Positions 3,063-61,921 of a stretch of DNA of 64,000 nucleotides are shown here, in pieces; the stretch's first letter is position 1; each line of letters opens with the position of its first letter. Under the pieces are notes generated by a model that was given only the letters and a program-made list of their open reading frames with translations, was not told the origin of the DNA and searched no databases. A program made the translations under genes and the position numbers. Source of the DNA: a virus; IMG/VR virus record IMGVR_UViG_3300037485_000225, positions 1-64,000 of that record, one strand, 5' to 3'.

Positions 3063-3381
3063 AAAAGCACTTCTTATAGAATATGAGTTGGAGTTTCTAG
3101 AAATGAAACTTCAAGAACTAAAGGAATATATACAGTCTAACCCCTTTTCTTCTTTAGCTGATAGAATGGCTTGGAAGGAAACAAAAGGTGGAGGATCTAT
3201 TCCTATTTGTATTGCTAATAAAGAAGCACAAAGAAAAGACTTGACACAAGCACTTAAAGACTATGCTGAGATTTTACGTACAGTGGATGCTATGAGAGAG
3301 AAAGAAGAGTCTAAAATAGAGGTGAGAGGCAAGGGAGAACTAAGCAGTATGGCTGAAGACTTCCTTAAAAATAGAAAATGA
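3049..3381 (+). CDS. hypothetical protein; by position a candidate small terminase subunit
   Basis: 110-aa charged and coiled ORF immediately upstream of, and overlapping, the large terminase gene. Positional inference only. Confidence 0.35.
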   Translation: MATTKKALLIEYELEFLEMKLQELKEYIQSNPFSSLADRMAWKETKGGGSIPICIANKEAQRKDLTQALKDYAEILRTVDAMREKEESKIEVRGKGELSSMAEDFLKNRK

Positions 3382-5414
3382 ATCTACAGAGTATAGACTA
3401 TAAAGACTGGTTTATAAATCAGAAGCGTATTCCTGACAAAACTAGTGAGGAGTTTAAGGAGTTTTTTGACTTTCATAAAGAGTTATGTCTAAATGGTTGT
3501 ATGATGGGGGGTGTTTATATCAACCCCTTTTTATATTGGCACCTAAACATGTGGCATACAGAGGTGGATGTTATTGATGCAAATGGAAGAATCTCTCAGA
3601 AATATGCTAACCCATTTCTTAGAGATAATGAGTGGGTGATTACCAATGAGATAGATAGAGCTCAGAATGAAAAGAAAGGACTGCTAATACTTGGTATTAG
3701 ACGTTTGGCTAAGTCTGTTATAGAAGCATCCTATGTATCTTGGGGTGCTACATTTGATGAAAACTCACAGAATATTATTTCTGGACTGAATGCTCCAGAT
3801 ATAAAACTGATTACAGATAAGATTGATAAAGGTCTTAACTTCTTACCAGAAGCTTGGAGATGGCAGAGGATTGAAGATAATTGGAAGAATCAAGTGACAC
3901 TAGGAATTAAAACTAGATCAGGAGAAAGGATACCATTCTCTTCTATTCTTATTCGTAACCTTGATGAAGGTAATAATGAAGAGGCAATTGCAGGTACTAA
4001 ACCACGTAAATTAATTATAGATGAGATCGGTAAAGGAAATTTCCTTAGAGGCTTACAGGCTGCTATTCCAGGTTTCACTACACCCTATGGTTGGGGATGT
4101 AGCCCCATACTTACTGGGACTGGTGGTGACATGAAAAAATTCATGGATGCAAAATCCTTGATGTTTGATGTAGACAATTTCAATTTTCTTTCTTATAATA
4201 ATGAGAAGGATACATCTAGAATGCATGGGCTCTTCATTGGACACAAGTATAGAATGGAGGCTAAAGAAGACTCTACACTAGGAGCTTTTTTAAAAGAACC
4301 TCCAGCTTCAGAACTATACAATGTAAAAATGTTAGTCTCTAATGATGAGAAGGCTACAGAAATTACAGAAAATAATCTTAACAGACTTAAAAAAGCTGGA
4401 GATAGAATAGCATATTTAAAAGAGAAGATGTACTATCCACAGGAAGTGGATGATATATTCTTGAATGAGGATACAAACATCTTTGATATTGAATCTGCTA
4501 AGAGACAAAAGTCTAGATTGTTACAGCAAGAACGTACAGGTACACCTGTTGTATTATATGCTGAAGAAACTACAATAAAGCATGAGTTTACAGATAAGCT
4601 TCCCATATCTAACTTCCCTCTCAAGAATAGTGATATGAAGGATGCTCCTGTAGTTATATATGAGTTCCCTATAGAAAATCCTCCTTATGGATTGTATGTA
4701 GCAGGAGTCGATCCCTATAGACAAGGTAAGTCAGCTTATTCAAGTTCATTAGGATCTGTATACATATATAAGAGAATGCATGAAATTACAGGTGAGAAGT
4801 ATCAAGATATGTTCGTAGCTTCGTACTGTGCAAGACCTGATAAGAAAGAAACTTGGGAAGAACAAGCTCGTTTACTTATTAAGTATTACAATGCTAGAAC
4901 ACTGTGTGAGAATGATGACATATCCTTTATTGAATATATGAAAGCTAAAGGAGATGCTCACTATTTAGAGAAACAACCTCAATGGTTGATGGAGATTGTT
5001 CCTAACACAACAGTTAAAAGAGAATATGGAATTCATCGTTCAAGTGAGAAAATAATTAACTACCTTCACACTTCCTTAAAGAAGTATATGGAAGAAACAA
5101 TATACACTGAGAAGGATGCTGATGGTAAGGTGATAAGAGAAGTGCTAGGAGTTCATAAGATATTTGATCCTGTATTGTTAGAAGAGATTATCCAATACAA
5201 TGATCAGGGTAACTTTGATAGAATTGTAGCTGCAGAGTTAGCAATTGCTCAAGCACTTAAGATGGACCCTATTATGGGAAGAATAGGTGGAACAGGAGAT
5301 GAGAGAGTGGCATCTATGTTTGTTAAGAAGAAAGGTAATGTATTATTCACAGAATCAAGAGGAGGGATGTTTGGCAGATCTCCTAGAAAATATAAAAATA
5401 AATTGTTTTCATAA
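3378..5414 (+). CDS. terL: terminase large subunit (ATPase plus nuclease)
   Basis: T4-like deviant Walker A ILGIRRLAKS (compare SRQLGKT) and Walker B LIIDEIG. C-terminal nuclease motif VAGVDPYRQGKSAYSS matches the classical terminase (I/V)G(V/I)DP..G.D.SA motif. Sits just upstream of the portal candidate. Confidence 0.8.
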   Translation: MNLQSIDYKDWFINQKRIPDKTSEEFKEFFDFHKELCLNGCMMGGVYINPFLYWHLNMWHTEVDVIDANGRISQKYANPFLRDNEWVITNEIDRAQNEKKGLLILGIRRLAKSVIEASYVSWGATFDENSQNIISGLNAPDIKLITDKIDKGLNFLPEAWRWQRIEDNWKNQVTLGIKTRSGERIPFSSILIRNLDEGNNEEAIAGTKPRKLIIDEIGKGNFLRGLQAAIPGFTTPYGWGCSPILTGTGGDMKKFMDAKSLMFDVDNFNFLSYNNEKDTSRMHGLFIGHKYRMEAKEDSTLGAFLKEPPASELYNVKMLVSNDEKATEITENNLNRLKKAGDRIAYLKEKMYYPQEVDDIFLNEDTNIFDIESAKRQKSRLLQQERTGTPVVLYAEETTIKHEFTDKLPISNFPLKNSDMKDAPVVIYEFPIENPPYGLYVAGVDPYRQGKSAYSSSLGSVYIYKRMHEITGEKYQDMFVASYCARPDKKETWEEQARLLIKYYNARTLCENDDISFIEYMKAKGDAHYLEKQPQWLMEIVPNTTVKREYGIHRSSEKIINYLHTSLKKYMEETIYTEKDADGKVIREVLGVHKIFDPVLLEEIIQYNDQGNFDRIVAAELAIAQALKMDPIMGRIGGTGDERVASMFVKKKGNVLFTESRGGMFGRSPRKYKNKLFS

Positions 5415-7993
5415 TGGCAATTATAAGATATACAAAAGACGCAACAATTAGGTATGCCTATTTAAACATATTCCCTGATCAGTTTAAAACTGAGAAGGAG
5501 AAGATGGATGAGAGTTGGATTAAAAACACAATGGATTATTTCGCTAATAAGTCATACGCTGAATATATAAAGAATAGAGACACCTTTGTTAAGAACTATG
5601 ATTTAATGAAGGGGATTCTTAGAAGAGAGGATTTTTATCAAGAGCCTGAGGTGAGAAGTTTCACAGATGTATTAACATCTGATCTTGAACTTCCTGCTTA
5701 TGTAAAAATGTATTCTATTATAACAACTCCTGTTAATGAGTTAGTTGGAGAAATTTCTAAAAGACCAGATGCTTTTCGTGTAAAGGCATTTGATGATGAT
5801 AGTAAATCTGAAGAGCTTGAGTTTAAGACAGGTATATTACAAGAGTATGTAATAGGACAAGCTAGACAAAAGATTCAAGAGAAAGCTGCATTACAAGGAC
5901 AAGAGATTGAAGATGAAGAGTTACAACAAATGACAATGAATGAGGTGAAGGATCAAATAGATTCTTACACATCCACTGCAGAGAAATGGGCTAACCATGT
6001 CCTCACTTCTCAAAAGGCTGAGTTTACTCTTAAAGAAAAAAGTGAAGATGCTTTCAGAGATATGTTAATATCTGCTAGAGAGTTCTATCATATATACGAA
6101 GATAATTCAAAGGTTGGATTTAATGTAGAGGTAGCAAATCCTAAAACTACATGGTTCTTAACAACACCAGATAGAAAATATATTTCAGATCCTACAGGTA
6201 GAGCACAAGCTGCATATGCTGCTGGTACTGTACAGGTGATGGAGCTATCTGAAATTATTGAATCAGTTCCTGATTTAACTAAAGATGAAATAGATCACTT
6301 ACGTTCTTCATTACAAGACTATGGATTGATTAATGTACGTGAATCAAATCTTGGTAATCCTAATGCTACTCCTGGTAATGACTCTATTCAATATGATACA
6401 TATGATCCTCTTGTTCTACAAACTAGAATGATCATTGAATCTGAAATGAAAGAGAATAATGATGGTCTTAAAGATTTCTTAGGTCTTACATCTAATGTAA
6501 GTTCTTTTGGTTATAAGTATGTAGTGGTGAGAGCCTATTGGATTAGTAAAAGAAAGATAGGTAAGCTTATCTATTTAGATGAGATGGGTAGTGAACAATC
6601 TCTACTTGTAGATGAGAATTATAAGAGTGGAACTATTCCTACACAACAATCTTTAGAGTGGGGATGGATTAACCAATGGTACCAAGGTATCAAGATTGGT
6701 CCAGACATCTATCATATCAAACCTTATAAGTTACTACCTTACTGTCCTATCATTGGTCAGGTGTTTGAGGTGAAGAATACAGAAGCTAAAAGCTTAGTAG
6801 ACTTAATGAAACCTTTTCAGGTTTTGTATAACGTATGTATGAATCAGCTTTACAAACTTCTTGAGAAGGAAGTGGGTAAGGTGCAATTGATGTCTATTAG
6901 ACATATTCCTATTCCTAAAGATGGAGATGCACAAGATGCTCTTGATATATGGGAAATGGAAGCTCGTAATAGAGGGGTAGTATTTATTGATGATAGTCCA
7001 GAGAATTTAAAAGCTCCTTCTAGCTTCAATCAATTTACTAGTCTAGATCTTACACGTACACAGGAGATACAAGCTCGTTATACATTAGCTCAACAATTAA
7101 AGAATGAGTGTTGGGAATTAATAGGTATGTCTAAACAAAGACTTGGATCTGTATCAGCTAGTGAAAGTGCTACAGGAACCAATGCTGCTATTACACAAAG
7201 TTATTCTCAAACAGAACCTTTATTTGTTGCACATGAATATGTATTAGGTCAGCTTTACCAAGGTATAATTGATGCATCTCTATATGTAGAAAGTGCTAAA
7301 CCACAATCTACAATTTCCTACATTACATCTCAAGGAGAATCTGCTTTTGTACAGGTGAATGGTACAGATCTTAAGTTCAGAGACTTAAAGGTGTATTTAA
7401 CTAATAGACCAGAGGATCAAAAAATGTTCACTGAATTACGCAGTTTATCACAAGCTGTTATACAGAATGGTGGAAGCTTATCTGATATCATTGAATTATA
7501 TTCAACTGATTCTGTTCGTCAAATGAAGAAGGTGTTTACAACACTTAAGGAAAGACAACAGCAATTAGAAGATCAGAAGATGCAACAACAACAGCAACAA
7601 TTAGAGCAACAACAACAACAAGCTCAAGCTACAATTGCTGCAGCTCAACAAGCACAACAAGAAAAAATGGCTCATGATGATTATCAAAATGAGTTGGATA
7701 GAATTAATAAGAAAGAGATTGCATTAATTTCTGCTGAATCTAAAGGAGGATTACCAGATGTAGATAATTCTGGAGCTCCTGATGTATTGGAAATCAATAA
7801 GTTATCATTAGAGCAATCAAAAGCTAGTAGAGACTATCAAACAAAAATGGCTGACATTCAATCTAAAAATACATTAGCTGCTCAAAAGCTACAAGTGGAA
7901 AGAGAAAAACTAAAAGTATCTAGAGAGAATCAAGCAAACGATTTAGCTATAGCTAAAGAGAATGCTAAGGGTAGGAACAAGAAAACTAAATAA
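5414..7993 (+). CDS. portal protein candidate (859 aa) with Q-rich coiled-coil C-terminus
   Basis: Position immediately after terL with an overlapping start. Size fits large portals. The C-terminal poly-Q/coiled-coil (QQQQQLEQQQQQAQ) is seen directly. Confidence 0.5.
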   Translation: MAIIRYTKDATIRYAYLNIFPDQFKTEKEKMDESWIKNTMDYFANKSYAEYIKNRDTFVKNYDLMKGILRREDFYQEPEVRSFTDVLTSDLELPAYVKMYSIITTPVNELVGEISKRPDAFRVKAFDDDSKSEELEFKTGILQEYVIGQARQKIQEKAALQGQEIEDEELQQMTMNEVKDQIDSYTSTAEKWANHVLTSQKAEFTLKEKSEDAFRDMLISAREFYHIYEDNSKVGFNVEVANPKTTWFLTTPDRKYISDPTGRAQAAYAAGTVQVMELSEIIESVPDLTKDEIDHLRSSLQDYGLINVRESNLGNPNATPGNDSIQYDTYDPLVLQTRMIIESEMKENNDGLKDFLGLTSNVSSFGYKYVVVRAYWISKRKIGKLIYLDEMGSEQSLLVDENYKSGTIPTQQSLEWGWINQWYQGIKIGPDIYHIKPYKLLPYCPIIGQVFEVKNTEAKSLVDLMKPFQVLYNVCMNQLYKLLEKEVGKVQLMSIRHIPIPKDGDAQDALDIWEMEARNRGVVFIDDSPENLKAPSSFNQFTSLDLTRTQEIQARYTLAQQLKNECWELIGMSKQRLGSVSASESATGTNAAITQSYSQTEPLFVAHEYVLGQLYQGIIDASLYVESAKPQSTISYITSQGESAFVQVNGTDLKFRDLKVYLTNRPEDQKMFTELRSLSQAVIQNGGSLSDIIELYSTDSVRQMKKVFTTLKERQQQLEDQKMQQQQQQLEQQQQQAQATIAAAQQAQQEKMAHDDYQNELDRINKKEIALISAESKGGLPDVDNSGAPDVLEINKLSLEQSKASRDYQTKMADIQSKNTLAAQKLQVEREKLKVSRENQANDLAIAKENAKGRNKKTK

Positions 7994-7995
7994 AT

Positions 7996-8526
7996 ATGTT
8001 TGATAAACTAATTGATGTATTGATTGAATGGTGGAATCATGTTCTACCATTCATTATTATCAGAGATTATGAACAAGCTGTACTTCTTAGATTTGGAAGA
8101 TTTAATCAAGTGTTACTGCCAGGTATACACTTTAAGATTCCTTTCTTTGATGAGGTGATAGATCAGCATGTGGTAGTCACAACACTCAGTCTTGATGCTC
8201 AATCTCTATATACTAAAGATAAGCAAAACATTGTTGTAAAAGGACTTGTTAAATATAAGATAGCTGATGTAAAGACTTTCTTATTAGAGGTTTATGATGC
8301 TCAGGATGCTTTATCAGATATGTCTCAAAGTATTATAAAAAATATTATTATGTCTATGACTTTAGAAGAGTGTACAGATTCTGAACTTGATAACACACTT
8401 ACAAAGAAAGTTAGGGTGGAAGCACGGAAGTGGGGGGTTGAAGTTCAACAAGTTACCCTTACAGATCTTGCCCCAATTAGAAGTTATAGGCTTATAAATG
8501 ACAACTTTATCAATAAACTTGATTAG
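7996..8526 (+). CDS. SPFH / band-7 (stomatin-prohibitin-HflK/C-like) domain protein
   Basis: N-terminal hydrophobic segment, then YEQAVLLRFGRF..LLPGIHFKIPFFDEV..VVVTTLSLDAQSLYTKDKQNIVVKGLVKYKI.D, which matches the SPFH core E.A..FRLGR...GpG....P..d......r....d.p.q...TKDnv.v.vd.vv.yrv. Confidence 0.75.
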   Translation: MFDKLIDVLIEWWNHVLPFIIIRDYEQAVLLRFGRFNQVLLPGIHFKIPFFDEVIDQHVVVTTLSLDAQSLYTKDKQNIVVKGLVKYKIADVKTFLLEVYDAQDALSDMSQSIIKNIIMSMTLEECTDSELDNTLTKKVRVEARKWGVEVQQVTLTDLAPIRSYRLINDNFINKLD

Positions 8527-8622
8527 AGTAAAAAAAGTTAATGCTATATTATCTTAAATAATGAGGCTATAACCTACATCTCTCTTTGCTATTAATTTTA
8601 ATTAATATACTTTTACATCTCA

Positions 8623-8650
8623 AAACCAATTAAAACTCAACTACATATGG
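8623..8650 (+). promoter_or_regulatory. conserved upstream element AAACCAATTAAAACTCAACTACATATGG (copy 1)
   Basis: Near-identical to 11651-11677. Sits immediately 5' of the start codon of the scaffold-like gene. Confidence 0.45.
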
Positions 8651-9909
8651 CTGAAAATCTAGATAGTCAACCCTTTGGGAACTTCAGTATCCAGGATACC
8701 ATGGAAATGGGTATGGGTAATGCTGAATTACTAAATGACTTAATGGGCCCTGATAGTGCTACTTCTAATCCTGATGATATTCAAGATATAGATAATGCAC
8801 CTGCCCCTGAAAAGAAAACAACACAAGCACCTGCTAAACCAGCTGCTTCAACTACTAGCACAGAAGAAACTCCTCCTATTGATGAAAAGAAATCTCTTGA
8901 AGACTTCTTGATGGATGATGATAAAGAAGAGGGAGAAGAGGTTGATGATCAACCACTTAAGAAAACTTCTGGAACAAAAGAGACCCCTGCTACAACAGAA
9001 GAGGGTGAAGAAGAAGGAGAAGCTGAAACAAATCAGTTTACTGCTCTTTCTAAAGATCTTTTTAAACTAGGAGTCTTTTCTAAAGAAGAAGAAGAAGAAG
9101 ATGTTCCAATAAACAATGCTGAAGAATTTTTAGAAAGATTCAATGCAGAGAAAAAGAAAGGGGCTGTTGAAGTGGTAAATAACTTCATTGGTCAATTTGG
9201 AGAAGAATATCAACAAGCATTTGATGCCATATTTGTAAAGGGAGTTAATCCTAAAGATTACTTTGGTGCATTTAACCAAATACAATCTTTCGCTGATATG
9301 GATCTTGCACAGGAAACTAATCAAGTGGCAGTTATTACACAAGCATTAACTGACCAAGGCCTTGATCCTGAGGATGTTACAACAGAGGTAGAAAGACTAA
9401 AGAATTATGGTGATCTTGAAAGCGTTGCTGGAAAACATCATAAGGTGCTAATAAAGAAAGAAGCTGCAAAGCTTCAACAAATGGAACAACAAAGAGAGGT
9501 TCAACTACAACAACAAGCTCAATACAAGCAACAATATGCTGCAAATGTAAACCAAGTTTTACAGGACAAGCTAAAAGCTAAAGAGTTTGATGGTATCCCT
9601 CTTAATCCAAAACTAGCTGGTGAACTACAAGATTTCTTAATAACAGATAAGTATAAAACAAATTCTGGTGAGACTCTCACAGACTTTGATAAAACTATCT
9701 TAGAACTTAAGCGTCCTGAGAATCATGAAAGGAAAGTAAAGGTGGCTCTATTATTAAAAATACTAGAAAAAGATCCTACATTATCTACGATTCAAAAGAC
9801 TGGTTTAACCAAAAAGTCAAATGAATTGTTTGGTGAGGTGGCCAGACAGGCAAGCAAAAGTGCTGTGAAATCTAGTAAACCTGCTCCATCCACTTCATGG
9901 TTTCAATAA
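8647..9909 (+). CDS. acidic scaffolding-like protein
   Basis: Highly acidic (EEEEEE, DDDKEEGEE) with an N-terminal disordered region and a Q-rich coiled coil. Located between the portal/SPFH genes and the capsid candidate. Confidence 0.45.
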   Translation: MAENLDSQPFGNFSIQDTMEMGMGNAELLNDLMGPDSATSNPDDIQDIDNAPAPEKKTTQAPAKPAASTTSTEETPPIDEKKSLEDFLMDDDKEEGEEVDDQPLKKTSGTKETPATTEEGEEEGEAETNQFTALSKDLFKLGVFSKEEEEEDVPINNAEEFLERFNAEKKKGAVEVVNNFIGQFGEEYQQAFDAIFVKGVNPKDYFGAFNQIQSFADMDLAQETNQVAVITQALTDQGLDPEDVTTEVERLKNYGDLESVAGKHHKVLIKKEAAKLQQMEQQREVQLQQQAQYKQQYAANVNQVLQDKLKAKEFDGIPLNPKLAGELQDFLITDKYKTNSGETLTDFDKTILELKRPENHERKVKVALLLKILEKDPTLSTIQKTGLTKKSNELFGEVARQASKSAVKSSKPAPSTSWFQ

Positions 9910-9940: not shown

Positions 9941-11494
9941 ATGGCAATTCAAACAATTCCAGGTTTAACTGGTTTTACCTATGCTAGAGTCGCTTCTATG
10001 GATAAGCGTGCTGTAGGTAAATTAACAGATGCTAACCACTTGGAAAGCTTTCACTCTACAGAGCCAGCAGATTATGATAAAAAGATCATAAGCCTGTATA
10101 CCCAAAGCTCTCTTTACAGTAATGATTTCTTAGACATGATTAACAAGTCTACTCCTTACTATATCGATAATAACAGTGATGCTTGGAAGTGGCAGGTACA
10201 AGTTCCTTACAAATTTCCTAAAATCATTGACATCCCTGTAACAACTTTAGAGTTGGACAAACCAGGTATTGATGGTCAAGAGTTTCAATTGATTATTGAC
10301 ACAAACGAATTCTCTAAGAATGCAATCGTTTCTGTTGGTACTCGTCAATATGGACCTCGTTTCTACGTTGTGAAAGATCCTCAACCTTGGAACATGGGAT
10401 ATTTATACACATTTACATTAGTAACTGATAATCCAGTTGTAGACTTTGTAAGCCCTACCTTCTTAAGAATAGGTATTGAGCTTGAATTAGTTGATGCTGC
10501 TATTGGTGAATTTGACCAAGACTTATTAGGTCTTCCTCGTTTAGGTGAGCAAATTACAATGTTTGAATCTTTAGGTTCTGCATATGGTTATGAGCACAAG
10601 ATCACTGAGTGGGCTGATGATAAGATGATGAGAGATGCTTCTGGTAAGCCTTTAGATATTTTGGTTTATGCTCCTCAAAGACGTAACCAATTACCTTTAA
10701 CTCGTAATGATGTTAAATGGGAACCATTTATTGAGTTCTGGATGCGTAAGTCTATGTTAGAATTAAAAGTTAAGCGTATGATCTGGGCTAAACCAGGTAC
10801 CGTTAAAACTAATGGTTCTAAGCAAGAATTAAAAAGAACTTCTGCTGGTGTTTACCACAGAATGAGAAATAACGGTAACTTAGTTCAATACAACCGTGGA
10901 GAATTCACTGCAAACTTGATTCGTTCTGTGTTTGGTGATTTGTTCTACAGACGTGTGGATGTTAAGGATCGTAGAGTTAAAATGTACACTAATGAAGCTG
11001 GATTCGATGTATTCCAACAAGCTTTGAAGAATGACGCTTTAAATTCTGGTTTAACTTTCATGGCTGATTCTGGTAATCGTTACATGCAAGGAGAAGGACA
11101 ACATATCACTTACAACTTTGCATTTGATGCAATGGTTACTCGTGAGACTGGTCGTGTTGAACTTATTCACTTGAAAGAATTAGACTTACCTCAAACTAAC
11201 TTAGAATTTGGACAAAACAAGAAATCAACTCCAGTATTTATGGTGTTTGATGTATCTCCAATGTCTGATGGTTCTATGGTTAACAACATTCGTGAGGTTC
11301 GTATGAAAGGTGCTCCTTCTATGACTTGGGGTTATATCGATGGTACTCGTAGTCACTTAGGCTTTGCTAAGTCTCAAGGTATGAGTTCTGCGAACAAATT
11401 CCCTGGTTATGAGATCTGGATGAAAGATCGTTGTGATGTGTTTATTGAAGATTTGTCTCGTACAGTCTTGATTGAGGAAATACCACAATTCTAA
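9941..11494 (+). CDS. major capsid protein candidate (517 aa)
   Basis: Canonical position after the scaffold gene. A-rich leader. Followed by a cluster of stem-loops. No motif-level proof. Confidence 0.45.
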   Translation: MAIQTIPGLTGFTYARVASMDKRAVGKLTDANHLESFHSTEPADYDKKIISLYTQSSLYSNDFLDMINKSTPYYIDNNSDAWKWQVQVPYKFPKIIDIPVTTLELDKPGIDGQEFQLIIDTNEFSKNAIVSVGTRQYGPRFYVVKDPQPWNMGYLYTFTLVTDNPVVDFVSPTFLRIGIELELVDAAIGEFDQDLLGLPRLGEQITMFESLGSAYGYEHKITEWADDKMMRDASGKPLDILVYAPQRRNQLPLTRNDVKWEPFIEFWMRKSMLELKVKRMIWAKPGTVKTNGSKQELKRTSAGVYHRMRNNGNLVQYNRGEFTANLIRSVFGDLFYRRVDVKDRRVKMYTNEAGFDVFQQALKNDALNSGLTFMADSGNRYMQGEGQHITYNFAFDAMVTRETGRVELIHLKELDLPQTNLEFGQNKKSTPVFMVFDVSPMSDGSMVNNIREVRMKGAPSMTWGYIDGTRSHLGFAKSQGMSSANKFPGYEIWMKDRCDVFIEDLSRTVLIEEIPQF

Positions 11495-11510
11495 GAAATA
11501 TAGAACAAAG

Positions 11511-11638
11511 GTTAGAACTAATGTTCTAAACAGTTCGAGAAGAATTCCCCCCCACTCCTCAAAAGTGGGGGAGTCTTCTCACCAACCCCAGATGGATGAA
11601 TGAAATTAAAACTTTCATTGCATTCCTTTCAATAGGAA
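11511..11638 (+). terminator. cluster of four consecutive stem-loops downstream of the capsid candidate
   Basis: TTAGAAC-taat-GTTCTAA (11512-11529). CCCCCACT-cctcaaa-AGTGGGGG (11549-11571). AATGAAA-ttaaaac-TTTCATT (11599-11619). TTCCT-ttcaat-AGGAA (11623-11638). None has a strong U-tract. Confidence 0.4.
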
Positions 11639-11650
11639 CCATCTGCAAAT

Positions 11651-11677
11651 AAACCAAATAAAAACAACTACATATGG
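11651..11677 (+). promoter_or_regulatory. conserved upstream element AAACCAAATAAAAACAACTACATATGG (copy 2)
   Basis: Matches copy 1 at 8623-8650 in 25 of 27 positions. A partial third copy AAACCAAATATAAAATG lies at 21356-21372 upstream of 21370. Confidence 0.45.
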
Positions 11678-12642
11678 GTAAGATAGGCAAAATCTCCACT
11701 TTAAAAAAGGAGTACAATAACTCTCTATTGCAAACAATGCAAGGAGGGCTTGCAACAAAAGGCTTAACAAGAATTCCTGGTACAGGTGTATTTAAGTATC
11801 CTTATAAAGAACTTGATGGTCAGTACAGAACAGGATTAGATCCTAATGCTGCGTACATCAGAAGAATTGGTGATAAGTTAGAAAGAGATTTAGAAATCGA
11901 AAGAGTAACTGAATTGAAAGCTAAACTTGAAGCTGCTTTAGGTGATATTAACTTAGGTCCTCGTTCTAGTTTCTGGAACTATGGATTATCAACTTCTACA
12001 GATGATACATTACATGTACAAGCTGTTAAATTGATGGATGGTGATAACTTCTATGATTTTAGTAATCCTTCACAAGAGTTAGCTTTTGCATGGTTAAGAG
12101 TTCATCCAACAATCGCATCAAGCTATGGAGCTTGGGAGCGTGGTGAATTTCCAGCAGATACACAATTCTATGTTGCAGATGATGAAATTGAAAGTGCAAT
12201 TATATTCAAGAAGAAACAATTAATCAATAAAGCTATTGCTAAGTTTGATGGTATGTCTCCTGAGAAGAAAAGAAAAGTTGCAAGATTATTAGGCCTACCT
12301 ATTTCAGAAGATACTAAAGAAGATGTTGTATATAATCAAGTAGATAATATTCTTAAGCAAACAGAGTTTAAGAATGGTAAATTCCAAGGATTATCAACAG
12401 TTGAAGTGTTCAATAGATTTGCTGACATGAAGGAAAACTTACTCCATATTAAAGACTTAGTAAAACAAGCCATTACACATTCTATTTATAGAATCAAACC
12501 TAATGGTAAAATATATGAAGGTGAATTTGAAATAGCTTCTGATGAAGATGATTTAGTCAAATTCCTTGTAGACGAAGATAATCAAGACCAACTATTAACA
12601 TTAGAAGGTAAATTGAAAACTAAAAAATTAGCATCTGTATGA
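11674..12642 (+). CDS. hypothetical virion structural protein (322 aa)
   Basis: ORF in the head-tail morphogenesis block, preceded by the conserved upstream element. Confidence 0.5.
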   Translation: MGKIGKISTLKKEYNNSLLQTMQGGLATKGLTRIPGTGVFKYPYKELDGQYRTGLDPNAAYIRRIGDKLERDLEIERVTELKAKLEAALGDINLGPRSSFWNYGLSTSTDDTLHVQAVKLMDGDNFYDFSNPSQELAFAWLRVHPTIASSYGAWERGEFPADTQFYVADDEIESAIIFKKKQLINKAIAKFDGMSPEKKRKVARLLGLPISEDTKEDVVYNQVDNILKQTEFKNGKFQGLSTVEVFNRFADMKENLLHIKDLVKQAITHSIYRIKPNGKIYEGEFEIASDEDDLVKFLVDEDNQDQLLTLEGKLKTKKLASV

Positions 12643-13370
12643 TCCCAGTAGATAGTTTATTATATAAGATTGATCAGAAACTAAATAAACTATCAACTAA
12701 CGAGCATCAACAAATTAACCTAGAAGACAAAATCCTAGCTTTAAATGAAGCTCAGATTAAGCTTATAAAGCAAAAGGTTGATGGTACAAATACAGTGAAT
12801 GGTCTAGGTCTCGATGCTTTTAAAAAGCGTTATGAAGACTTACAAAGTTTGGTTGAGACTTACAATCATCAACCCCTTGATTTACATATTAAGAACACTG
12901 AGTTAAATCAGTGGGCAGCCAATGTACATCTACTTGTTCCAAAATATATGTTCTATATCGATAGTTATATATTAGCAGATAAAGGACAATGTACAGATAG
13001 AAAGATATGGATTAATAGAGATCTTGCAAAACATGGTGATTTACAATACTGTTTAAACAACACGCATTATAAACCATCATTTGAATATCAAGAAACCTTC
13101 AACTTTCTATCAACAGATGAAATATCTATATTTACAGACGGTACATTTACACCTAAGCAAATATATATTTCATACATGCGTTATCCTGAATACATAAATA
13201 AAACAGGATATGTAATGTTAGATGGTGAAGATTCTTATGATCAAGACTGTGAACTTGAACTATACCTAGAAGATGAACTTTTAGATCTTACAGTTCAAAA
13301 TCTAGCAATGTATACAGAAAACCAGTCTGCTGTTCAAAACTCAATGTATAGAATACAGACAAACGAATAA
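12639..13370 (+). CDS. hypothetical structural protein (243 aa)
   Basis: ATGA overlap with the upstream gene, implying translational coupling. Confidence 0.5.
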   Translation: MIPVDSLLYKIDQKLNKLSTNEHQQINLEDKILALNEAQIKLIKQKVDGTNTVNGLGLDAFKKRYEDLQSLVETYNHQPLDLHIKNTELNQWAANVHLLVPKYMFYIDSYILADKGQCTDRKIWINRDLAKHGDLQYCLNNTHYKPSFEYQETFNFLSTDEISIFTDGTFTPKQIYISYMRYPEYINKTGYVMLDGEDSYDQDCELELYLEDELLDLTVQNLAMYTENQSAVQNSMYRIQTNE

Positions 13371-37101: not shown

Positions 37102-39753
37102 ATGGCTTCATTTACAGATCAAATATCACAATTTAACCCCTACATTCAGCAACTCCCAGTTGATGCTATGGTTAAAGTGGGCATGCAAAAGCAGGCTCAG
37201 TATGACCAAGGTGTGCAAAAAATTCAGGGCTATATAGATAATATAGCTGGAATGGATGTTATGCGTGATGTGGATAAACAACATTTACAATCTAAACTTA
37301 ATGAATTAGGTGGTAGATTAAGAACTGTTGCTGCTGGAGATTTCTCTAATGCTCAATTAGTTAACTCAGTAGGGGGGATGGCTACTCAAATAGTTAAAGA
37401 TCCTTATGTACAAGCTGCTGTTCAATCAACAGCAAATGCTAGAAAGCAACTTAGTTTGGTAGACCAAGCTAGAGAAAAGGGAGAGTTAACTCCTGACAAT
37501 GAGTGGTTTTTTACGGAGAAACAACTTAATAAATACCTATCTAATCCTAGTCTTGCAGGAGAAAAGAATAGTCCTGTAGTGTTTAATGGTAAATACATTA
37601 AGCATTATGATGTAGATAAAGATATACAAGAAGCTATTGGAAAAGCCCATTTAAGTTCAGATGAATGGGAAGAGAATGCTCTTAATGCAGATGGTAGTGT
37701 GAATTCAGATATTCTTATAGAGAAAGCAAAGAAGGGATTGTTAAGTGGAAAGGTTAAAAGTATAGTTGAAAGTGTATTTTCAAAACCAGAGGTGCAACAA
37801 CAGTTAGCTATTACAGGTACCTATCAGTTTAAAGACTACACTCCTGAGATGTTAAAAGGTGTACAGGATGAAAGTATAAACTATATTAGAAATAAAGCAA
37901 AAGAGAACAGAGACAGAATTGCTTGTGTTGGAGTTATTTCTGATTATGAAGCAGCAAATGCAAATAAAGCAATAATTAATATTGATAATCAACTACAATC
38001 TTCAGAAGAACAGTATGCTAAATACATGAAGCTGTTAAATGAAGGAAAGATTGATGAAGCAAAGATATCTTTATATAGAGATAATAAAGAAGCACAATAT
38101 CAAACTGATTACTCTTGGGAAGAGAACTCTATGAAATCAAAGGTGAATCCTTGGTTTACTGTGCAGATGACAAGAGCTAATTATAACTTAGCTGTACAGA
38201 AAGAAATATTTGATGAAGGAGATGCTAATAGAAAGTTTAATGAAGGAGTAAGACAGTTTGGTTTAAGCTATGGTTTACAATTAGAAGATGCTCAAAGAAA
38301 AAGAGATATTGCTAATAATAAGTTAAATCCTGATGGCAGTTCTAAAGTTATATATACAAAAGATCCAATTAACCCTGAGGAAGTAGCTAAAATAGGATCT
38401 CAGTCTTATAAAGCTAATATTCAAGTTTTAAAAGATCAGGCAAATCAGCTTCAAGCTAAGGTGATATCTACTCTTCCAGGATTTGAAGATTTGTATAGGC
38501 AAGATGATAATGGTGTATATAAGTTTAACTATTCTAAATATAAAGACTGGAAAACAATTGAACCAAAATATAAAATGGCTTTAGTGGAGTTAGAGAAAGC
38601 TCACATGAATGGTACAGTGAAACCTAACTACAGACAAGATGTACAACAAATACATGATTTACAATCATTGGTTTCTCTAAAAACTCAAACAGAAAAAGAA
38701 ATAGATGATAGGTATAAACCACTAGTAGATAAAATAGCTAATCAAATATCAGATCCTAAACCTATATATGGTAAATCTACTATGCCTATAAGTAAAACAG
38801 ATATGGTTAATGTTTGGCTTGCTGAAAATAGTACAGATCCACAAACAGCTAAAACAGCTAGAGATTACATAAATACAAAATATGGTAAAGGAGGGGGAGC
38901 ATTTGGTGATAAAAAAGCAGATGCAGTAATATTTCTTTCTGGAATTTATAAAGATTCATTCAAACAAATAGATAAAGTAATGAGTGATAATCCTGGTTTA
39001 GCACCTATGTTTGCAAATAGAGAAAAGGATTATAAAAAAGTACAACAACAAAATGGAACTTGGTATGCTACTATTAATGAAGGAAAACCTGAAGGTAAAT
39101 TATTAGTAAACCAAAAGTATAGTGCTCTTTTAGCTAGAGTGATGGGAGGTGAAAAGACAGGAGGTGTCTATGGAAAAATGGCAAAGATGTTATCTGCTAA
39201 AGAACCTAGTGAGTTAAATGAAAACTTATATGGTTATTTTAGAGGGCAAGATGGTCAATTTTATGCACAAATTAGAAGAAACTTAGGATCTGGTGAAGGA
39301 TATGAATACTCTGAAATGTTACCAATTGCACCAGAAGAAGCTGCTGAATTAGGAGCAAAAACAGATCCACTTGAAGATGCTTTCAATTCAAAGTTTGGTG
39401 GATATTTAAATAACTTTCAAGGAAAACAAACTGCTAAAAATTTAATATCTCCAGAAGCAGAGAATGCAGCAATTAATAGAAGATCTGTAGGTCAATATTC
39501 TGTAGGTTTTCAATTAAAAGAATTGAATGGTGGATATGTTCCATATTTATATGTTAGAGATAGAAATGGAAATGTTCTATCTAGTGGAATGGAACTTGAT
39601 TTTTCAGTGTATTCAAAAGATCCAAGATTAACTCCTATACAAAGAGAACGTTTTAAAGACGTACAATCTATAATGAGTAAAGCAGATGTAGTTACTAAAC
39701 TACCTCTAATAGATGAGAATCTTATAACATTAATGTTAAATAACAATAGATAA
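37102..39753 (+). CDS. large coiled-coil virion protein (883 aa)
   Basis: Continuous ORF whose stop overlaps the start of the giant gene (ATAATGG). Confidence 0.5.
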   Translation: MASFTDQISQFNPYIQQLPVDAMVKVGMQKQAQYDQGVQKIQGYIDNIAGMDVMRDVDKQHLQSKLNELGGRLRTVAAGDFSNAQLVNSVGGMATQIVKDPYVQAAVQSTANARKQLSLVDQAREKGELTPDNEWFFTEKQLNKYLSNPSLAGEKNSPVVFNGKYIKHYDVDKDIQEAIGKAHLSSDEWEENALNADGSVNSDILIEKAKKGLLSGKVKSIVESVFSKPEVQQQLAITGTYQFKDYTPEMLKGVQDESINYIRNKAKENRDRIACVGVISDYEAANANKAIINIDNQLQSSEEQYAKYMKLLNEGKIDEAKISLYRDNKEAQYQTDYSWEENSMKSKVNPWFTVQMTRANYNLAVQKEIFDEGDANRKFNEGVRQFGLSYGLQLEDAQRKRDIANNKLNPDGSSKVIYTKDPINPEEVAKIGSQSYKANIQVLKDQANQLQAKVISTLPGFEDLYRQDDNGVYKFNYSKYKDWKTIEPKYKMALVELEKAHMNGTVKPNYRQDVQQIHDLQSLVSLKTQTEKEIDDRYKPLVDKIANQISDPKPIYGKSTMPISKTDMVNVWLAENSTDPQTAKTARDYINTKYGKGGGAFGDKKADAVIFLSGIYKDSFKQIDKVMSDNPGLAPMFANREKDYKKVQQQNGTWYATINEGKPEGKLLVNQKYSALLARVMGGEKTGGVYGKMAKMLSAKEPSELNENLYGYFRGQDGQFYAQIRRNLGSGEGYEYSEMLPIAPEEAAELGAKTDPLEDAFNSKFGGYLNNFQGKQTAKNLISPEAENAAINRRSVGQYSVGFQLKELNGGYVPYLYVRDRNGNVLSSGMELDFSVYSKDPRLTPIQRERFKDVQSIMSKADVVTKLPLIDENLITLMLNNNR

Positions 39754-42700
39754 TGGCTTTACCTACTAAAGAAACATTGCAGAACGCAGAGCGTGTAATA
39801 CCAGATGCTACTGAACGTACACTTGTAGAATATCCTTCAAATATACCAAAGTTTCAAATGAACTTAGAAACTGCAACTGGTGGAGGAAATCAACAAAGTG
39901 ATGCTTATAGTAGGGCATTGTTATTAGCTTCTCCTACAAAACCATCTAACTTAACTTCATCTAGTACATTTAGTTATAATCCTTTACAGATAGATACAAG
40001 TGGTAGATATGATAGATTTATATTAGGACAAGATAATGAAGACATTCAAGGTAAGTTACAGTCTGGTTGGGATCAAGCAGCAAATGGTCTTGTTAAAGGA
40101 TTAGGTATTGCAGGAACCACTTTCTTAGATGGTACTGTAGGATTGATAGCTGGATTAACTTCATCTATTGCTAATGGTTCTCTTAATAAATTTTATAATA
40201 ATGACTTTACAAACTATATGGATAGTTTGAATAAGTCTATGGAGAATAAACTTCCTAACTATTACACTGCATCTGAAAGAGATGCTAAGTGGTATGAGGC
40301 TGAAAACTTGTTTACTGCTAATTTCTTCTGGGATAAAATTATTAAGAATTTAGGATTCTCAGCAGGTGCTATTGGAGCAGGTGCTGTTACAGCAGGATTG
40401 TTATCAAAAGTTCCAGCATTGTTTGGTATATCTAAAGCTGGTAAGCTTGCACAAGTGGCAGATGCTTTAGAAGTTGGATTAAAAGGTGTTCCTGAAATAG
40501 AGCGTGCAGCAAAAGCTGCAGACATTATTGCACAAACATCTAAAACTATTAACACATTAAACAAGCTTTCATCAGTAGATAGAGCAGTTGTTGCTGGATT
40601 AAGTGCTGCTACAGAAGGTGGTATTGAAGCATTACAAGGATTAAATAGTTATAGAGATAAGTTAATTGCACAATATCAAGATACATATGGTGAATATCCT
40701 CCAGAGGATGTATTAAATAAAATTAATAATAGAGCAGAAGATCTAGGTAATGCTAGATTTGGTTTGAATGTATTGTTGCTATCAGCAACTAACTATATTC
40801 AACTTCCAAGAATATTAGGTTCTTCTTATCGTTCTGGTAAGAATACATTAATTAATTCTGCAAAAACCAATCTTGAGACAGGGTTATTAGAATCCTCTCT
40901 TCCTACAAAAGGTATTGGTAAAGCTTTATATAAAGCAAGGAATGTAGCTAGTTTATTCTTTTCTCCTACTGAAGGATTTGAAGAAGGAGCACAATATGCT
41001 ATTGAGAGAGGAACACAATCTTATTATAATAAAAAGAACTATGTTAAAGATGAATCTTTAGGTAGTTTTATAAATAGTTTTTCAGAGGCTGCTGGTGAGG
41101 GTATTAAAGCTGTAGGTGATAAAGAGGGTATGGAATCAATTTTAATTGGTGCTCTATCTGGAGGTATACAACAAGCAGGCTTTGTAGGAATGTACAAAAA
41201 TGAACAGGGTAATAATAGAGTTGGTATTGGTAAAGGTGGAGCAATAGGTGAAAGAGGATTTACAGGCTATGGTGGAGAGATGGCTAAAAACACAGAAGAT
41301 CTTATCAAACAATCAAAAAGATTCTCTCTTAAAGGAGATGAGTGGTTAAAAGATACAAAAGCTGGTGTTAAGAGAGGAGTTGTTTTACAAGAAGAATTTG
41401 ACCAACACGTAAGAATAGGAGATGTTCTTGAGGCTAAAGATACTGAATTTGATTATCAACATAACTACTTACTACCACGTATTAAATATGGTAGATATGA
41501 TCTTGTTAAAGATGATATAGATTATTATAAAGGATTAGCTTCTACACAAGAAGGATTTGATGAATTAAAGAAGAAAGGCATTGCTTCTGAGTTAGACACA
41601 CAACAAAGTTTTATAGATAGAATTGATAACTTTGCAGAACATGCTAAGGTGGTTAATTCATTGAATGAATCTTTGAATCTTAGATATGCAGGAGTTGTAT
41701 ATAAAGATACAAACAAAAGAGCTTATAGCGATGATGCTATTGAGCAAATGATATATGCTGCAGCAAAGATATCTGATTATGATAAGCGTGTACCACAGTT
41801 AACTGACAAGTTAGTTGCTGCTGGTATTGTTGTATCAAATGTACTTGATGATATTATTTCAGAAGGTCTTCCAAAAGAAGAAGTGGTAAAACAAGCTATC
41901 AATGATATTGATAAACTTGATGTGATAGAAGATGTTAAAGTTGAGTTAAAAGAAAACTTAAGAGATGCTGTAGAACTTTCTATAAGAAGAAAAGACTTCA
42001 TAGATGAGTATTCTAATATTAAGAAAAACCCTGCTAAGTACACTGAGGATAAAGGTGATAAACCTTTAAATACTAATGTACAAACTGTTAAGATTGTTAC
42101 CAAAACTGGTGAAAAGGATATTGTTGTAGGAGAAGAACTATTTTTAGGAAACACTGTCAAATACACTTCTAAGGGTGAAGAGGTTCGTGGGTTCCCTAGA
42201 TTAACTATTCTTGGAGAAAATGAAGATGGTAGTATTAAGATTAAAGACTCTAATGGTGATATTAGAGATATATCTAAAAGCGAGTTAGCTGATTATAAGT
42301 TAAGTAAGGTGAGTGATACATTAACTAATAAAACAGCTGCGTATTATTTAGCTCATGTTAATGATGTATTCCAATATAACTTTGGTCAAGCAAGTGAGGA
42401 TAAGAAAAGACCAGGTAGATTAGAATATGATAATGGTAAATTATTCTTTGTATATAAAAACTATAAAGGAGAAATTAAAAGAAAGCAAATTGATAACTCT
42501 CACTTTATAGCTCAAGAAGGATTTAGAGATGCTAGAATAAAGACAGTGGGTACACTCACTGCTGAATCTGCTGAGAAAAAAGCAGCTAGAGAAGCATTTA
42601 CATCTGCTGAAGAATTAAAGAAGCAACAACAAACCCTTGCTCAAAATAGAGATAATCGTTTAGAGATTATTACAGAATTATCTAATGAGCATATTGCTAA

Positions 42701-57910: not shown

Positions 57911-57977
57911 AAGCTCACATGTATTGCTATATTATGTAGGAATACTTTTTCCAATACATTGAAAATAAATTAAATTA

Positions 57978-58030
57978 CCTATTTTTGCTATAATTAGTGC
58001 AGAATGTATAATATTCTTGCACTAATTTGT
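57978..58030 (+). promoter_or_regulatory. promoter-like region with an operator-like palindrome upstream of the collagen-like fibre gene
   Basis: TATTTTTG at 57980-57987 and TAATTTG at 58023-58029 both fit the -7 TAnnTTTG element. Imperfect palindrome GTGCAGAAT-gtataata-TTCTTGCAC at 57998-58022 encloses TATAAT. Confidence 0.4.
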
Positions 58031-61000: not shown

Positions 61001-61921
61001 ATACAAGACAGAAGTAATTCAGCTAATTACCAAATATGGACAATTAGCGCTACTCCTACTTATGTCCCTACAACTTATTGGACTATACCTGTTACATTGG
61101 TATCTTCAGCAGGAACGGGAACAACAGGGTTTGCTAATAACCATCCAATATTTGTAGCTACATCTGCTTTTAGTGGAACGAGTGGAACAACGGGTACTTC
61201 TGGTACAAGTGGCACTGGAACTAGTGGTACATCTGGTACAACTGGAACTTCTGGAACTACAGGTACAAGTGGTACATCAGGTACTTCAGCTACAGATGGA
61301 ACTAGTGGTACAACTGGTACTAGCGGTACATCAGGCACTAGTGGTACAAGTGGAACATCAGCAACTGATGGAACAAGTGGTACTTCTGGCACCACAGGAA
61401 CTTCTGGAACAAGTGGAACATCTGGTTCAAGTGGTACAGCAGGTACAACAGGTACTTCAGGTACAAGTGGAACTGATGGCACAAGTGGAACAGCTGGTAC
61501 ATCTGGAACCTCAGGATCTAGTGGTACAACTGGAACAAGTGGAACAGCTGGAACAGCTGGTACAGCAGGTACAAGTGGTACATCTTGTGGATTATGTGGA
61601 ACAAGTGGAAATACAATTACTATTCCTTCTACTCCTGCTACAACTACTACAACTACAACAGCTGGTCCTGTGGTATATACAATTGATTCATTTGGAACAG
61701 GTAGTGCCTTTGATGCTTGTACTACTGGAAGTCCAACAATCACTGTATATGCATTACCAGGTTATACAACACCTATTGTTGGCATGATTCTTTATGATAG
61801 TTCAAGTTTAACAACTCCTTATATTGGTGGAGCAGGTTGGAGAAAATTAATACAAGGTGCTACAAGTTATGCAGCAGAAGTAGATATTAATGGAGAAATT
61901 ACAAACTATTCAGCTTGTTAA
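58064..61921 (+). CDS. collagen-like tail fibre (1285 aa) with two interruption domains, a second globular domain and a Cys-containing C-terminal domain
   Basis: N-terminus (C..C...C.FYEG...YTG.D.ND.LQ.ALQKID.A) is homologous to the N-termini of 15586 and 16770. Long G-T-S/G-x-y runs. Interruption domains at 58661-58920 and 60125-60384. Non-collagen segment 60800-61190. C-terminal SCGLCG...poly-T...Cys domain. Confidence 0.8.

Follow-up and report, generated by a model that had tools for sequence, protein, structure and literature searches.

Gene order around the SPFH gene

The window (the whole stretch of viral DNA that was analysed, 64,000 nt) carries a block of head genes in which a gene for an SPFH/Band-7 protein directly follows the genes for the terminase large subunit (TerL) and the portal. 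The following genes and features were identified.

3378..5414, plus strand: terminase large subunit, TerL (phrog_6681, E=2e-85)
5414..7993, plus strand: portal protein (P22_portal, E=2.2e-15; phrog_6547, E=3e-101)
7996..8526, plus strand: mini-SPFH (stomatin-like) gene, 176 aa (ORF, Pfam, AlphaFold2, Foldseek)
7999..8043, plus strand: N-terminal amphipathic acidic helix of the SPFH protein, residues 2-16 (AlphaFold2 helix, hydropathy, hydrophobic moment)
8050..8475, plus strand: SPFH1+SPFH2 core, residues 19-160 (AlphaFold2 secondary structure, Pfam, PDB profile alignment)
8476..8523, plus strand: short low-confidence tail, residues 161-176, with a conserved S-x-R-L (pLDDT, conservation)
8527..8646, plus strand: conserved 120-nt spacer with promoter-like blocks (invariant blocks across related loci)
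8647..9909, plus strand: pre-capsid gene, putative scaffold, 420 aa, at the position of crAss001 gp31 (phrog_16294, E=2.8e-8)
9941..11494, plus strand: major capsid protein, crAss type (Crass_capsid PF23898, E=1.3e-26; phrog_11589, E=1.2e-32)

The coordinates of the SPFH ORF are exact, with an ATG start at 7996 and a TAG stop at 8524-8526, and 2 nt separate the portal stop codon from the SPFH start codon. A sequence-only reading of this DNA had placed the gene between portal and scaffold genes in a head module. The P22_portal and Crass_capsid matches bear out the upstream portal and the head-module setting, and the downstream gene can be called scaffold-like by position and composition only, so that its assignment is putative. 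In the product of this gene the N-terminal ~170 aa are acidic and disordered, and the C-terminal part is rich in Q/K/E and taken to be helical. Its sole match was to phrog_16294, an unannotated family, and there was no match in Pfam, PDB or NCBIfam. Homology to crAss001 gp31 was considered and rejected, given no BLAST similarity and no PDB match.

Beyond the capsid gene, which has a G+C-rich hairpin at its 3' side, the order is ring 3/4, collagen-like fibres, ring 2, an HU/IHF-like gene, ring 1 and muzzle, and large ORFs of cargo size follow, one of 4387 aa. Gathering scores were reached by crAss_MUZ (E=2.6e-35), CrAss_Ring_2 (E=2.2e-14) and CrAss_Ring_1 (27.7 bits vs 27), and CrAss_Ring_3_4 fell below its score (21 bits vs 27, E=2.2e-4). 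A Crassvirales-type virion module in canonical order is thus present. The portal is only about 25% identical to those of named crassviruses, and its best GenBank match is Leptolyngbya phage Lbo-JY46 (29% identity). The phage is a divergent crAss-like one, and the window represents its virion module. The host is probably a freshwater Bacteroidota, for example Sediminibacterium: one contig of the same clade was binned in a Sediminibacterium MAG, a weak hint with which the crAss-like nature of the phage and the promoter type agree.

The promoter type is suggested by the spacer that follows the SPFH gene. Five blocks of this spacer (TTAATGCTATATTAT, CTCTTTG, TTTTACA, AAACCAA and AACTACATATGG) are invariant across related loci whose coding sequences are near saturation for synonymous divergence, and TGCTATATTAT, among the spacer blocks, is like an extended -10 element. 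A two-part motif, TTTG-N19-TAnnTTTW, lies within the spacer at 8585-8615 and at two other intergenic sites, before ORF 1546 and ORF 58064; we take it to resemble the Bacteroidota -33/-7 promoter. A scan of 3-12 kb for sigma-70 promoters found no enrichment (23 sites vs 33 expected from shuffles). The invariant promoter-like blocks directly downstream suggest that the SPFH gene closes the TerL-portal transcription unit, and that the spacer is probably the start of a separate, likely strong unit comprising the pre-capsid and capsid genes.

Identity, architecture and conservation of the SPFH protein

The SPFH domain, which the sequence-only reading called clear and proposed to check against Pfam PF01145, is confirmed by that search. 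Band_7 is the only significant Pfam family in the ORF (E=4e-28, 99.1 bits, gathering cut-off 23.6), and the match spans residues 21-160, or profile positions 2-147 of 176. An AlphaFold2 model based on an alignment of 70 family sequences (mean pLDDT 93.5, pTM 0.82) has the corresponding fold: the top Foldseek match in the PDB is human stomatin (9oh9, E=2.5e-14, TM 0.77), followed by HflK/C, QmcA, prohibitin, erlin and flotillin, and the matches to stomatin, HflK/C, QmcA and prohibitin range from E 1e-14 to 1e-9 and TM 0.69-0.78. A profile of the family aligned with PDB sequences gave the same leading partner (stomatin, E=1.4e-25; QmcA, E=3e-21; HflK, E=2e-19). Placement in PHROGs was weak, in phrog_200 'lipoprotein' (E=3.5e-11, profile positions 103-258 of 379). 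PADLOC returned no defence-system match for the protein, and a role as a defence-system component was rejected on this basis.

The protein is minimal, consisting of the SPFH1+SPFH2 core alone. In the AlphaFold2 model the core comprises strand from 19-89, then helix from 92-146 and strand from 148-160; the SPFH1 part is beta-rich, and the SPFH2 part is alpha/beta and ends at residue 160. The core aligns with stomatin residues 34-191, and in the family profile PDB partners align no further than the end of SPFH2. The protein stops 16 residues beyond that point, in a tail with pLDDT 56-69 in the last two blocks. The C-terminal coiled coil and cap with which SPFH proteins build rings and cages are lacking, so that the wall and cap parts of cages are missing.

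The N-terminal membrane anchor typical of SPFH proteins (TM helix, hairpin or lipid anchor) is also lacking. The Kyte-Doolittle 19-residue maximum is 1.27, below that of a TM segment, and exceeds 1.6 in only about 11 of 70 family members; no signal peptide was recognised when the N-terminus was inspected by eye. An acidic amphipathic helix occupies the place of the usual TM or hairpin anchor, at a position that corresponds in the profile alignment to the second arm of the stomatin membrane hairpin. Across the 70 family members this helix (residues 2-17) has a hydrophobic moment of 0.56, vs 0.24 in shuffles, and a net charge of about -1.5, which is negative in 84%. An acidic polar face is unusual in lipid-binding helices.

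In the alignment of 70 sequences, conservation is complete or at least 90% at twelve residues: R32, G34, G43, K47, P49, T63, Q69, T73, D75, D108, G147 and R165. Several of them fall within motifs that are identical in stomatin (LRlG, pG...P, tkD). D108, in an A-x-D-A-L-x-D segment, and the nearly invariant R165, in the S-x-R-L motif of the tail, look family-specific.

Searched against about 5.8 billion proteins, the SPFH protein had 717 matches, the best 120 of which are 81-95% identical, all but one 176 aa long, and encoded on contigs of up to 116 kb. In 81 related loci (from IMG/VR, plus one JGI contig), the order TerL, portal, SPFH, pre-capsid gene, capsid is kept in 81/81 wherever the flanks are present, and the tight portal/SPFH junction and the spacer of ~120 nt are likewise preserved. 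The protein is always 176 aa and 73-97% identical among these loci, a range close to that of the portal and TerL, above that of the pre-capsid gene (mostly 63-80%) and below that of the capsid (94-99%). For the SPFH gene, pairwise comparison with the window gives a dN/dS of ~0.08, vs 0.05 for the capsid and, from only 6-7 gap-free pairs, 0.10 for TerL and 0.11 for the portal. The ORF is thus a real, strongly conserved and selected phage gene, and the position kept in 81/81 loci together with the low dN/dS makes it a fixed, selected part of this crAss-like clade.

An apparently phage-borne family in varied gene contexts

Scanning 1.84 billion cluster representatives yielded 5359 matches at E<=1e-3, of which 959 reached E<=1e-10. 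Among the best 150 of the 5359, nearly all are 168-190 aa long and most align over nearly their full length; at least 150 clusters (50% identity) have the layout without anchor and cap. These numbers and lengths indicate a large family with an architecture of its own rather than a truncated gene. The closest cellular matches are 25-32% identical, and most cover residues 29-162 only. Phage genes are present on every sampled contig of sufficient length for a judgement, and the family is apparently phage-borne. No cultured phage with a member was found in the collection searched, where the only hit was the uncultured MW202733; a tblastn search of that collection with the SPFH protein returned no Crassvirales record, and a search of IMG/VR with two single distant queries gave no match.

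About 33-35 lineages were sampled for gene context. The arrangements that could be recognised are as follows.

crAss-like clade of the window: portal, SPFH, pre-capsid gene
Second crAss-like lineage (L192/L193): HNH, SPFH, 104 aa, TerL, portal
Third crAss-like lineage (L200): SPFH about 2.5 kb before TerL
DUF4055-portal lineage (L111, L190; also L113, L115, L191): TerL, portal, SPFH, MuF
T7-like L101: portal, scaffold, SPFH, capsid; L102 has a T7-type portal upstream
T7-like L086: TerS, x, SPFH, TerL
L087 (= MW202733) and L176: SPFH directly after TerL
L176: TerL, SPFH, 71-aa ORF, Amidase_2-like endolysin
L175 and L187-189: SPFH 2-4 genes before TerL; perhaps also L110 (weak TerL call)
Large phages L093, L194, L195, L199: SPFH flanked by two virion structural proteins
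L089: SPFH at the end of a late block, with DUF6549 and Amidase_2 genes about 3 kb upstream
L094, L099, L197: DNA polymerase adjoining SPFH
L097: RusA adjoining SPFH
L098, L091, L196, L178, L203: exonucleases or phosphoesterases adjoining SPFH
L092: GTP cyclohydrolase adjoining SPFH
L171: RtcB adjoining SPFH

Head, packaging or structural contexts account for about 12-13 of ~33 lineages, replication or nucleotide-metabolism contexts for about 11, and unannotated contexts for about 9. The gene lies within four genes of TerL in 8-9 of ~33 lineages, vs about 3 expected by chance. By this rough estimate the enrichment near TerL is modest, and it could reflect a packaging, head or lysis role. TerL also marks the edge of a module, a place that tends to attract accessory genes and homing endonucleases. 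'Head maturation protease' PHROG matches among the neighbours were ascribed to three MuF-type proteins. Several head-morphogenesis and minor-head PHROGs each matched exactly three of the neighbour sets, and three lineages (L111, L113, L115) have a Mu-F-type protein beside SPFH, which makes these neighbours the most likely source of the protease label.

In about 40 loci no conserved partner, NfeD-like or other small protein, was found downstream; the downstream neighbours are mutually unrelated and few have a TM segment. The mini-SPFH proteins cluster by genome G+C and not by phage type or gene context in a neighbour-joining tree, where the protein of the window joins those of other low-G+C phages that carry the gene at quite different places. 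With G+C taken as a proxy for host, this grouping fits exchange among phages with similar hosts, and it may partly be a bias of amino-acid composition. Searches of the literature found annotation mentions of phage SPFH genes only, and no functional study of any mini-SPFH member. One 2026 preprint speculates on a cd03408 domain in a gut crassvirus.

Possible functions and comparison with known SPFH systems

We tentatively favour a function as an accessory, host-directed factor of the cytoplasm or the peripheral membrane that perturbs or mimics host SPFH scaffolds. The protein would be made, and would stay, in the cytoplasm, where it might dock on the inner membrane face or on host SPFH assemblies via its SPFH1 face and amphipathic helix. 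Since it lacks the ring-closing elements, it may serve as a protomer without a cap, one that disturbs or imitates host scaffolds of the stomatin, QmcA, flotillin or HflKC type, and the phage would profit from the resulting change in membrane organisation or in the quality control of membrane proteins (FtsH-type proteolysis). This reading draws on the architecture of the protein, on the size and phage setting of a family with only distant cellular matches, on the fixed position and a dN/dS similar to that of TerL and portal, and on the lack of an NfeD-like partner, a defence-system match and a protease domain. Several observations count against a role specific to the virion or capsid: family members adjoin genes for DNA polymerase, RusA, exonuclease, phosphoesterase, GTP cyclohydrolase and RtcB; the gene is missing in Lbo-JY46, and none is annotated in crAss001 gp16-gp47; and the tree groups the proteins by G+C, the host proxy. 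Counting against the host-directed reading are the acidic polar face of the helix, the modest enrichment near TerL, the possible composition bias in the tree, the absence of the family from cultured phages in the collection searched, and a sample of only about 35 lineages with roughly 9 unannotated contexts.

The sequence-only reading had pointed out that a prohead protease usually lies where the SPFH gene is found, and that no recognisable protease is present in the head block. The second observation holds and can be extended: no protease family was matched among the 28 scanned ORFs of the 64-kb window, a set without the 4387-aa ORF and most of the small ones. That a protease-like or capsid role follows from the position is not supported. 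What lies at the portal/pre-capsid junction varies among crAss-like phages, since the interval between the portal (gp20) and gp31 of crAss001 holds ten genes, for head fibre, tail spikes and lysis, and the portal and pre-capsid genes of Lbo-JY46, the closest GenBank portal, are adjacent with no SPFH gene between them. The crAss001 structural atlas and a Crassvirales review mention neither a prohead protease nor maturation cleavage, and the review states that the mechanisms of capsid assembly are not established. Given this silence, absence of a protease appears to be the norm for these phages and is no pointer to the SPFH gene. A stand-in for, or regulator of, the prohead protease, on the pattern of stomatin-NfeD/STOPP (SPFH plus a ClpP-like protease), is therefore already close to refuted. 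The interval between portal and scaffold-like gene does correspond to the place where HK97-type phages carry their protease, and the scanned ORFs do lack one. Nevertheless, the SPFH fold lacks a catalytic site (the ORF showed no catalytic domain of S49/ClpP, S78/U35, S77 or S80 type), no NfeD or ClpP/S49-like partner adjoins the gene in any locus examined, and no protease is reported for crAss-like phages. NfeD proteins recognise the C-terminal region of their SPFH partner, and this region is missing from mini-SPFH.

The sequence-only reading also raised a cement function. Relatives lie beside DNA polymerase or nuclease genes about as often as in head or packaging modules, which argues against a cement or scaffold part tied to one capsid type. 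A link to FtsH or to assembly at the membrane, which that reading proposed too, may exist. A virion structural protein, whether capsid cement or decoration or an internal, ejected protein, seems very improbable to us. The gene does lie within the head block, the large phages typified by L093 have virion structural proteins on either side of it, and the SPFH fold also occurs in the cage-forming major vault protein (a weak Foldseek match, E=1.5e-5). Yet the family spans T7-like, MuF-type and crAss-like phages with different capsids, the crAss001 head-module region gp16-gp47 has no annotated SPFH gene, and the sole proteomic mention found concerns a long, lipoprotein-type SPFH protein detected with 3 spectra in a Vi01-like phage. 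An accessory of head assembly or packaging, made together with portal and terminase, which would help to start or localise procapsid assembly, for instance by tethering the portal to the membrane, or would chaperone portal or terminase, is unlikely. Such tethering has a model in T4 gp40, which is said to assist gp20. The position 2 nt after the portal gene, fixed in 81/81 loci, favours this role, as do the recurrence of a terminase- or portal-side placement in unrelated lineages (L111, L190, L101, L086, L087, L176), placement 1-4 genes before TerL in L193, L175, L189 and possibly L110, and the flanking virion proteins in L093, L194, L195 and L199. Against it stand the about equally many lineages with the gene in replication or nucleotide-metabolism modules, the capacity of other crAss-like phages to build heads without mini-SPFH, and a search that found no co-varying structural partner; moreover, TerL as a module boundary collects accessory genes, and an HNH gene adjoins SPFH in L193.

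A factor in lysis timing or membrane integrity, which modulates the holin/endolysin step or stabilises the inner membrane until assembly is done, we regard as doubtful. The lysis cassettes of lambda, P22 and T7 sit in TerL-proximal slots, and the TerL-proximal SPFH gene of L086 is at the position of T7 gene 18.5 (spanin). Consistent with such a role are also the endolysin two genes after SPFH in L176, the DUF6549 and Amidase_2 genes in the same block in L089, and the lysis genes gp27, gp28 and gp30 in the portal/gp31 slot of crAss001. However, no holin or endolysin adjoins the SPFH gene in the window, most other contexts have no lysis gene nearby, and mini-SPFH has no TM segment. The 'lysis regulatory protein' gp27 of crAss001 was considered as a homologue and rejected, as it is not an SPFH protein. 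Whatever probability these five readings leave belongs to other functions.

A bolder version of the host-directed proposal, which we consider improbable, is that a phage-evolved, cap-less stomatin protomer inserts into or docks on host SPFH cages, or the membrane beside FtsH-type proteases, and disables membrane-protein quality control during infection; its alternative is a membrane platform that nucleates portal-initiated procapsid assembly. If either were true, these genes would represent a widespread, undescribed class of phage effectors built from a fold conserved from eukaryotes to bacteria. Membrane scaffolds of the SPFH type (stomatin, prohibitin, flotillin, HflK/C) are universal, their cages were solved only in recent years, and mini-SPFH is a very abundant form that has retained the core and lost the anchor and the ring-closing parts. 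Should it target host SPFH proteins or FtsH, phages would have a host-takeover factor of a new type, which could serve as a natural probe of SPFH cage assembly; should it act in head assembly, it would tie membrane scaffolds to procapsid initiation.

Virus-encoded SPFH proteins have been noted in many genome papers, in which we found no assigned function. As an annotation curiosity, SPFH genes of phages and giant viruses are already known, and pipelines label members of the mini family HflC, HflK or prohibitin-like. New here is the recognition of a distinct SPFH family without anchor and cap, found so far only on phage-like contigs. Also new are the size of this family, the fixation of the gene in a crAss-like lineage that is widespread, and the fact that it adjoins terminase and portal genes recurrently, though not exclusively. 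For annotation, labels such as 'HflC/HflK' or 'protease regulator' on mini-SPFH phage genes overstate knowledge.

The likeness to HflK/C drawn in the sequence-only reading proved loose, and the protein is closer to stomatin. It has the SPFH domain in common with HflK and HflC, and automated pipelines label its relatives HflC or HflK. HflK TIGR01933 aligned over residues 19-160, but scores were far below the NCBIfam equivalog cut-offs (76.2 bits vs 159.4 for TIGR01933; 57.6 bits vs 134.4 for HflC TIGR01932). Identification as HflK or HflC was rejected on these cut-offs and on architecture. Unlike the HflK/HflC gene pair, there is a single SPFH gene, between the portal and ORF 8647, and no second one was found among the scanned ORFs of the window; also unlike HflK/HflC, the protein has no TM anchor, coiled coil or signal peptide recognisable by eye. 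The SPFH domains of HflK/C sit on the periplasmic side. Mini-SPFH is not expected in the periplasm, since it lacks a TM anchor and a recognisable signal peptide.

Long SPFH/Band-7 proteins are encoded by T4-like phages 44RR, Aeh1 and RB43, by Vi01-like (gp200) and N4-like (OLIVR1 gp51) phages, by Rhizobium phage Pasto and by mimiviruses. Like mini-SPFH they are virus-encoded, and they have no assigned function. The closest structural matches among them are 258-507 aa, and some are annotated as membrane protein or lipoprotein; the mini family is shorter and separate. Two entries of the mini family from uncultured phages belong to other phage types and bear names from automatic annotation only. 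The 'prohibitin-like protein' of MW202733, an uncultured 45-kb podophage with the gene straight after TerL, has the same length as the protein of the window and is 26.6% identical over 97% of the query. The 'HflK protein' A0A6J7WFI0 in UniProt is 173 aa long and superposes with TM 0.87 over 173 columns.

The best match in both sequence and structure is to stomatin (human STOM, Pyrococcus PH1511) and QmcA, with which mini-SPFH shares the SPFH1+SPFH2 layout. Unlike these proteins of about 250-310 aa, it is phage-encoded, has 176 aa, carries an acidic amphipathic helix instead of a hydrophobic hairpin or TM segment, and lacks the coiled-coil wall, cap and C-terminal strand. Unlike the stomatin-NfeD operon, the locus has no NfeD/STOPP gene beside SPFH, which is followed by the 120-nt spacer and the 420-aa acidic protein. 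Within the core the correspondence with stomatin can be followed at the level of residues, as the segment 'IIRDYEQAVLLRFGR' of the phage protein aligns with 'IIKEYERAIIFRLGR' of stomatin.

Candidate regulatory elements

Three intergenic copies of a two-part motif, TGCTATATTAT followed by TTTGCTWTWAAT after a gap of 35-55 nt, were identified in the window, all of them 5' of genes or operons on the plus strand:

8538-8552 and 8585-8595, 5' of ORF 8647, the pre-capsid gene
57921-57935 and 57984-57994, 5' of ORF 58064
1463-1477 (inverted) and 1530-1540, 5' of ORF 1546

The TGCTATATTAT half resembles an extended -10 element. Neither half taken alone is enriched relative to shuffled sequences. The copy in the 120-nt spacer between the SPFH gene and ORF 8647 (8527-8646) is almost invariant among related phages, and the sequence TTTG-N19-TAnnTTTW at 8585-8615 is similar to the -33/-7 promoter type of Bacteroidota. 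The copies of the two-part motif probably serve as phage promoters.

The genes on either side of the capsid gene, ORF 8647 and ORF 11674, have an identical start context, AACTACATATG, 5' of their start codons:

8639-8649, start context of ORF 8647
11666-11676, start context of ORF 11674

Allowing at most one mismatch, this sequence has 8 matches against 3.2 expected. It may be a translation-initiation or leader element common to the two genes. Also present, about 50 nt downstream of the capsid stop codon, is a hairpin:

11547-11573, G+C-rich hairpin with a 12-bp stem, CCCCCCCACTCC...GGAGTGGGGG

It probably closes the pre-capsid/capsid unit, acting either as a terminator or in RNA stability.

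Large ORF and collagen-repeat proteins

Four large genes were identified elsewhere in the window:

39753-52916, uninterrupted ORF of 4387 aa
16770-19466, collagen-repeat protein (Pfam Collagen, E=1e-68)
58064-61921, collagen-repeat protein (Pfam Collagen, E=6e-102)
61948-63660, collagen-repeat protein (Pfam Collagen, E=2e-33)

Judged by its position downstream of the muzzle and cargo-size genes, the 4387-aa ORF may encode a virion RNA polymerase, as is typical of crAss-like phages. The three collagen-repeat proteins are probably tail fibres; the C-terminus of the first has a weak match to the endosialidase chaperone (Peptidase_S74). Local G+C rises to 0.39-0.43 at these genes, where there are also long antisense ORFs that we consider spurious; both features are attributed to the Gly-X-Y coding repeats.

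The SPFH gene and its surroundings in other phages

Two otherwise dissimilar lineages of high-G+C phages, L098 (8547-8852) and L177/L178 (a 106-aa ORF), encode a small conserved protein with the motif GKSLADFRA-HDKS...P-KI directly 3' of their SPFH gene. No counterpart was found in the window. In crAssphage cr124_1 (Suoliviridae), the gene after portal (11457-13187) contains 22 in-frame stops under code 11, and was therefore left out as a comparison; the stops fit the stop-codon reassignment reported for this family.

Within the phage clade of the window, the 59-kb contig JBBAJX010000014.1 encodes an SPFH protein that is 82% identical. This contig was binned in a 'Sediminibacterium sp.' MAG (freshwater Chitinophagaceae), which is either a hint of the host or a binning artefact.

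The mini-SPFH gene also occurs in two more distant crAss-like lineages, L192/L193 (8001-8531) and L200 (7965-8552), whose TerL proteins are 42% and 21% identical, respectively, to that of the window. In L193 it is adjoined by a gene for an HNH homing endonuclease. In both lineages the mini-SPFH gene lies upstream of TerL, whereas in the window it follows portal.
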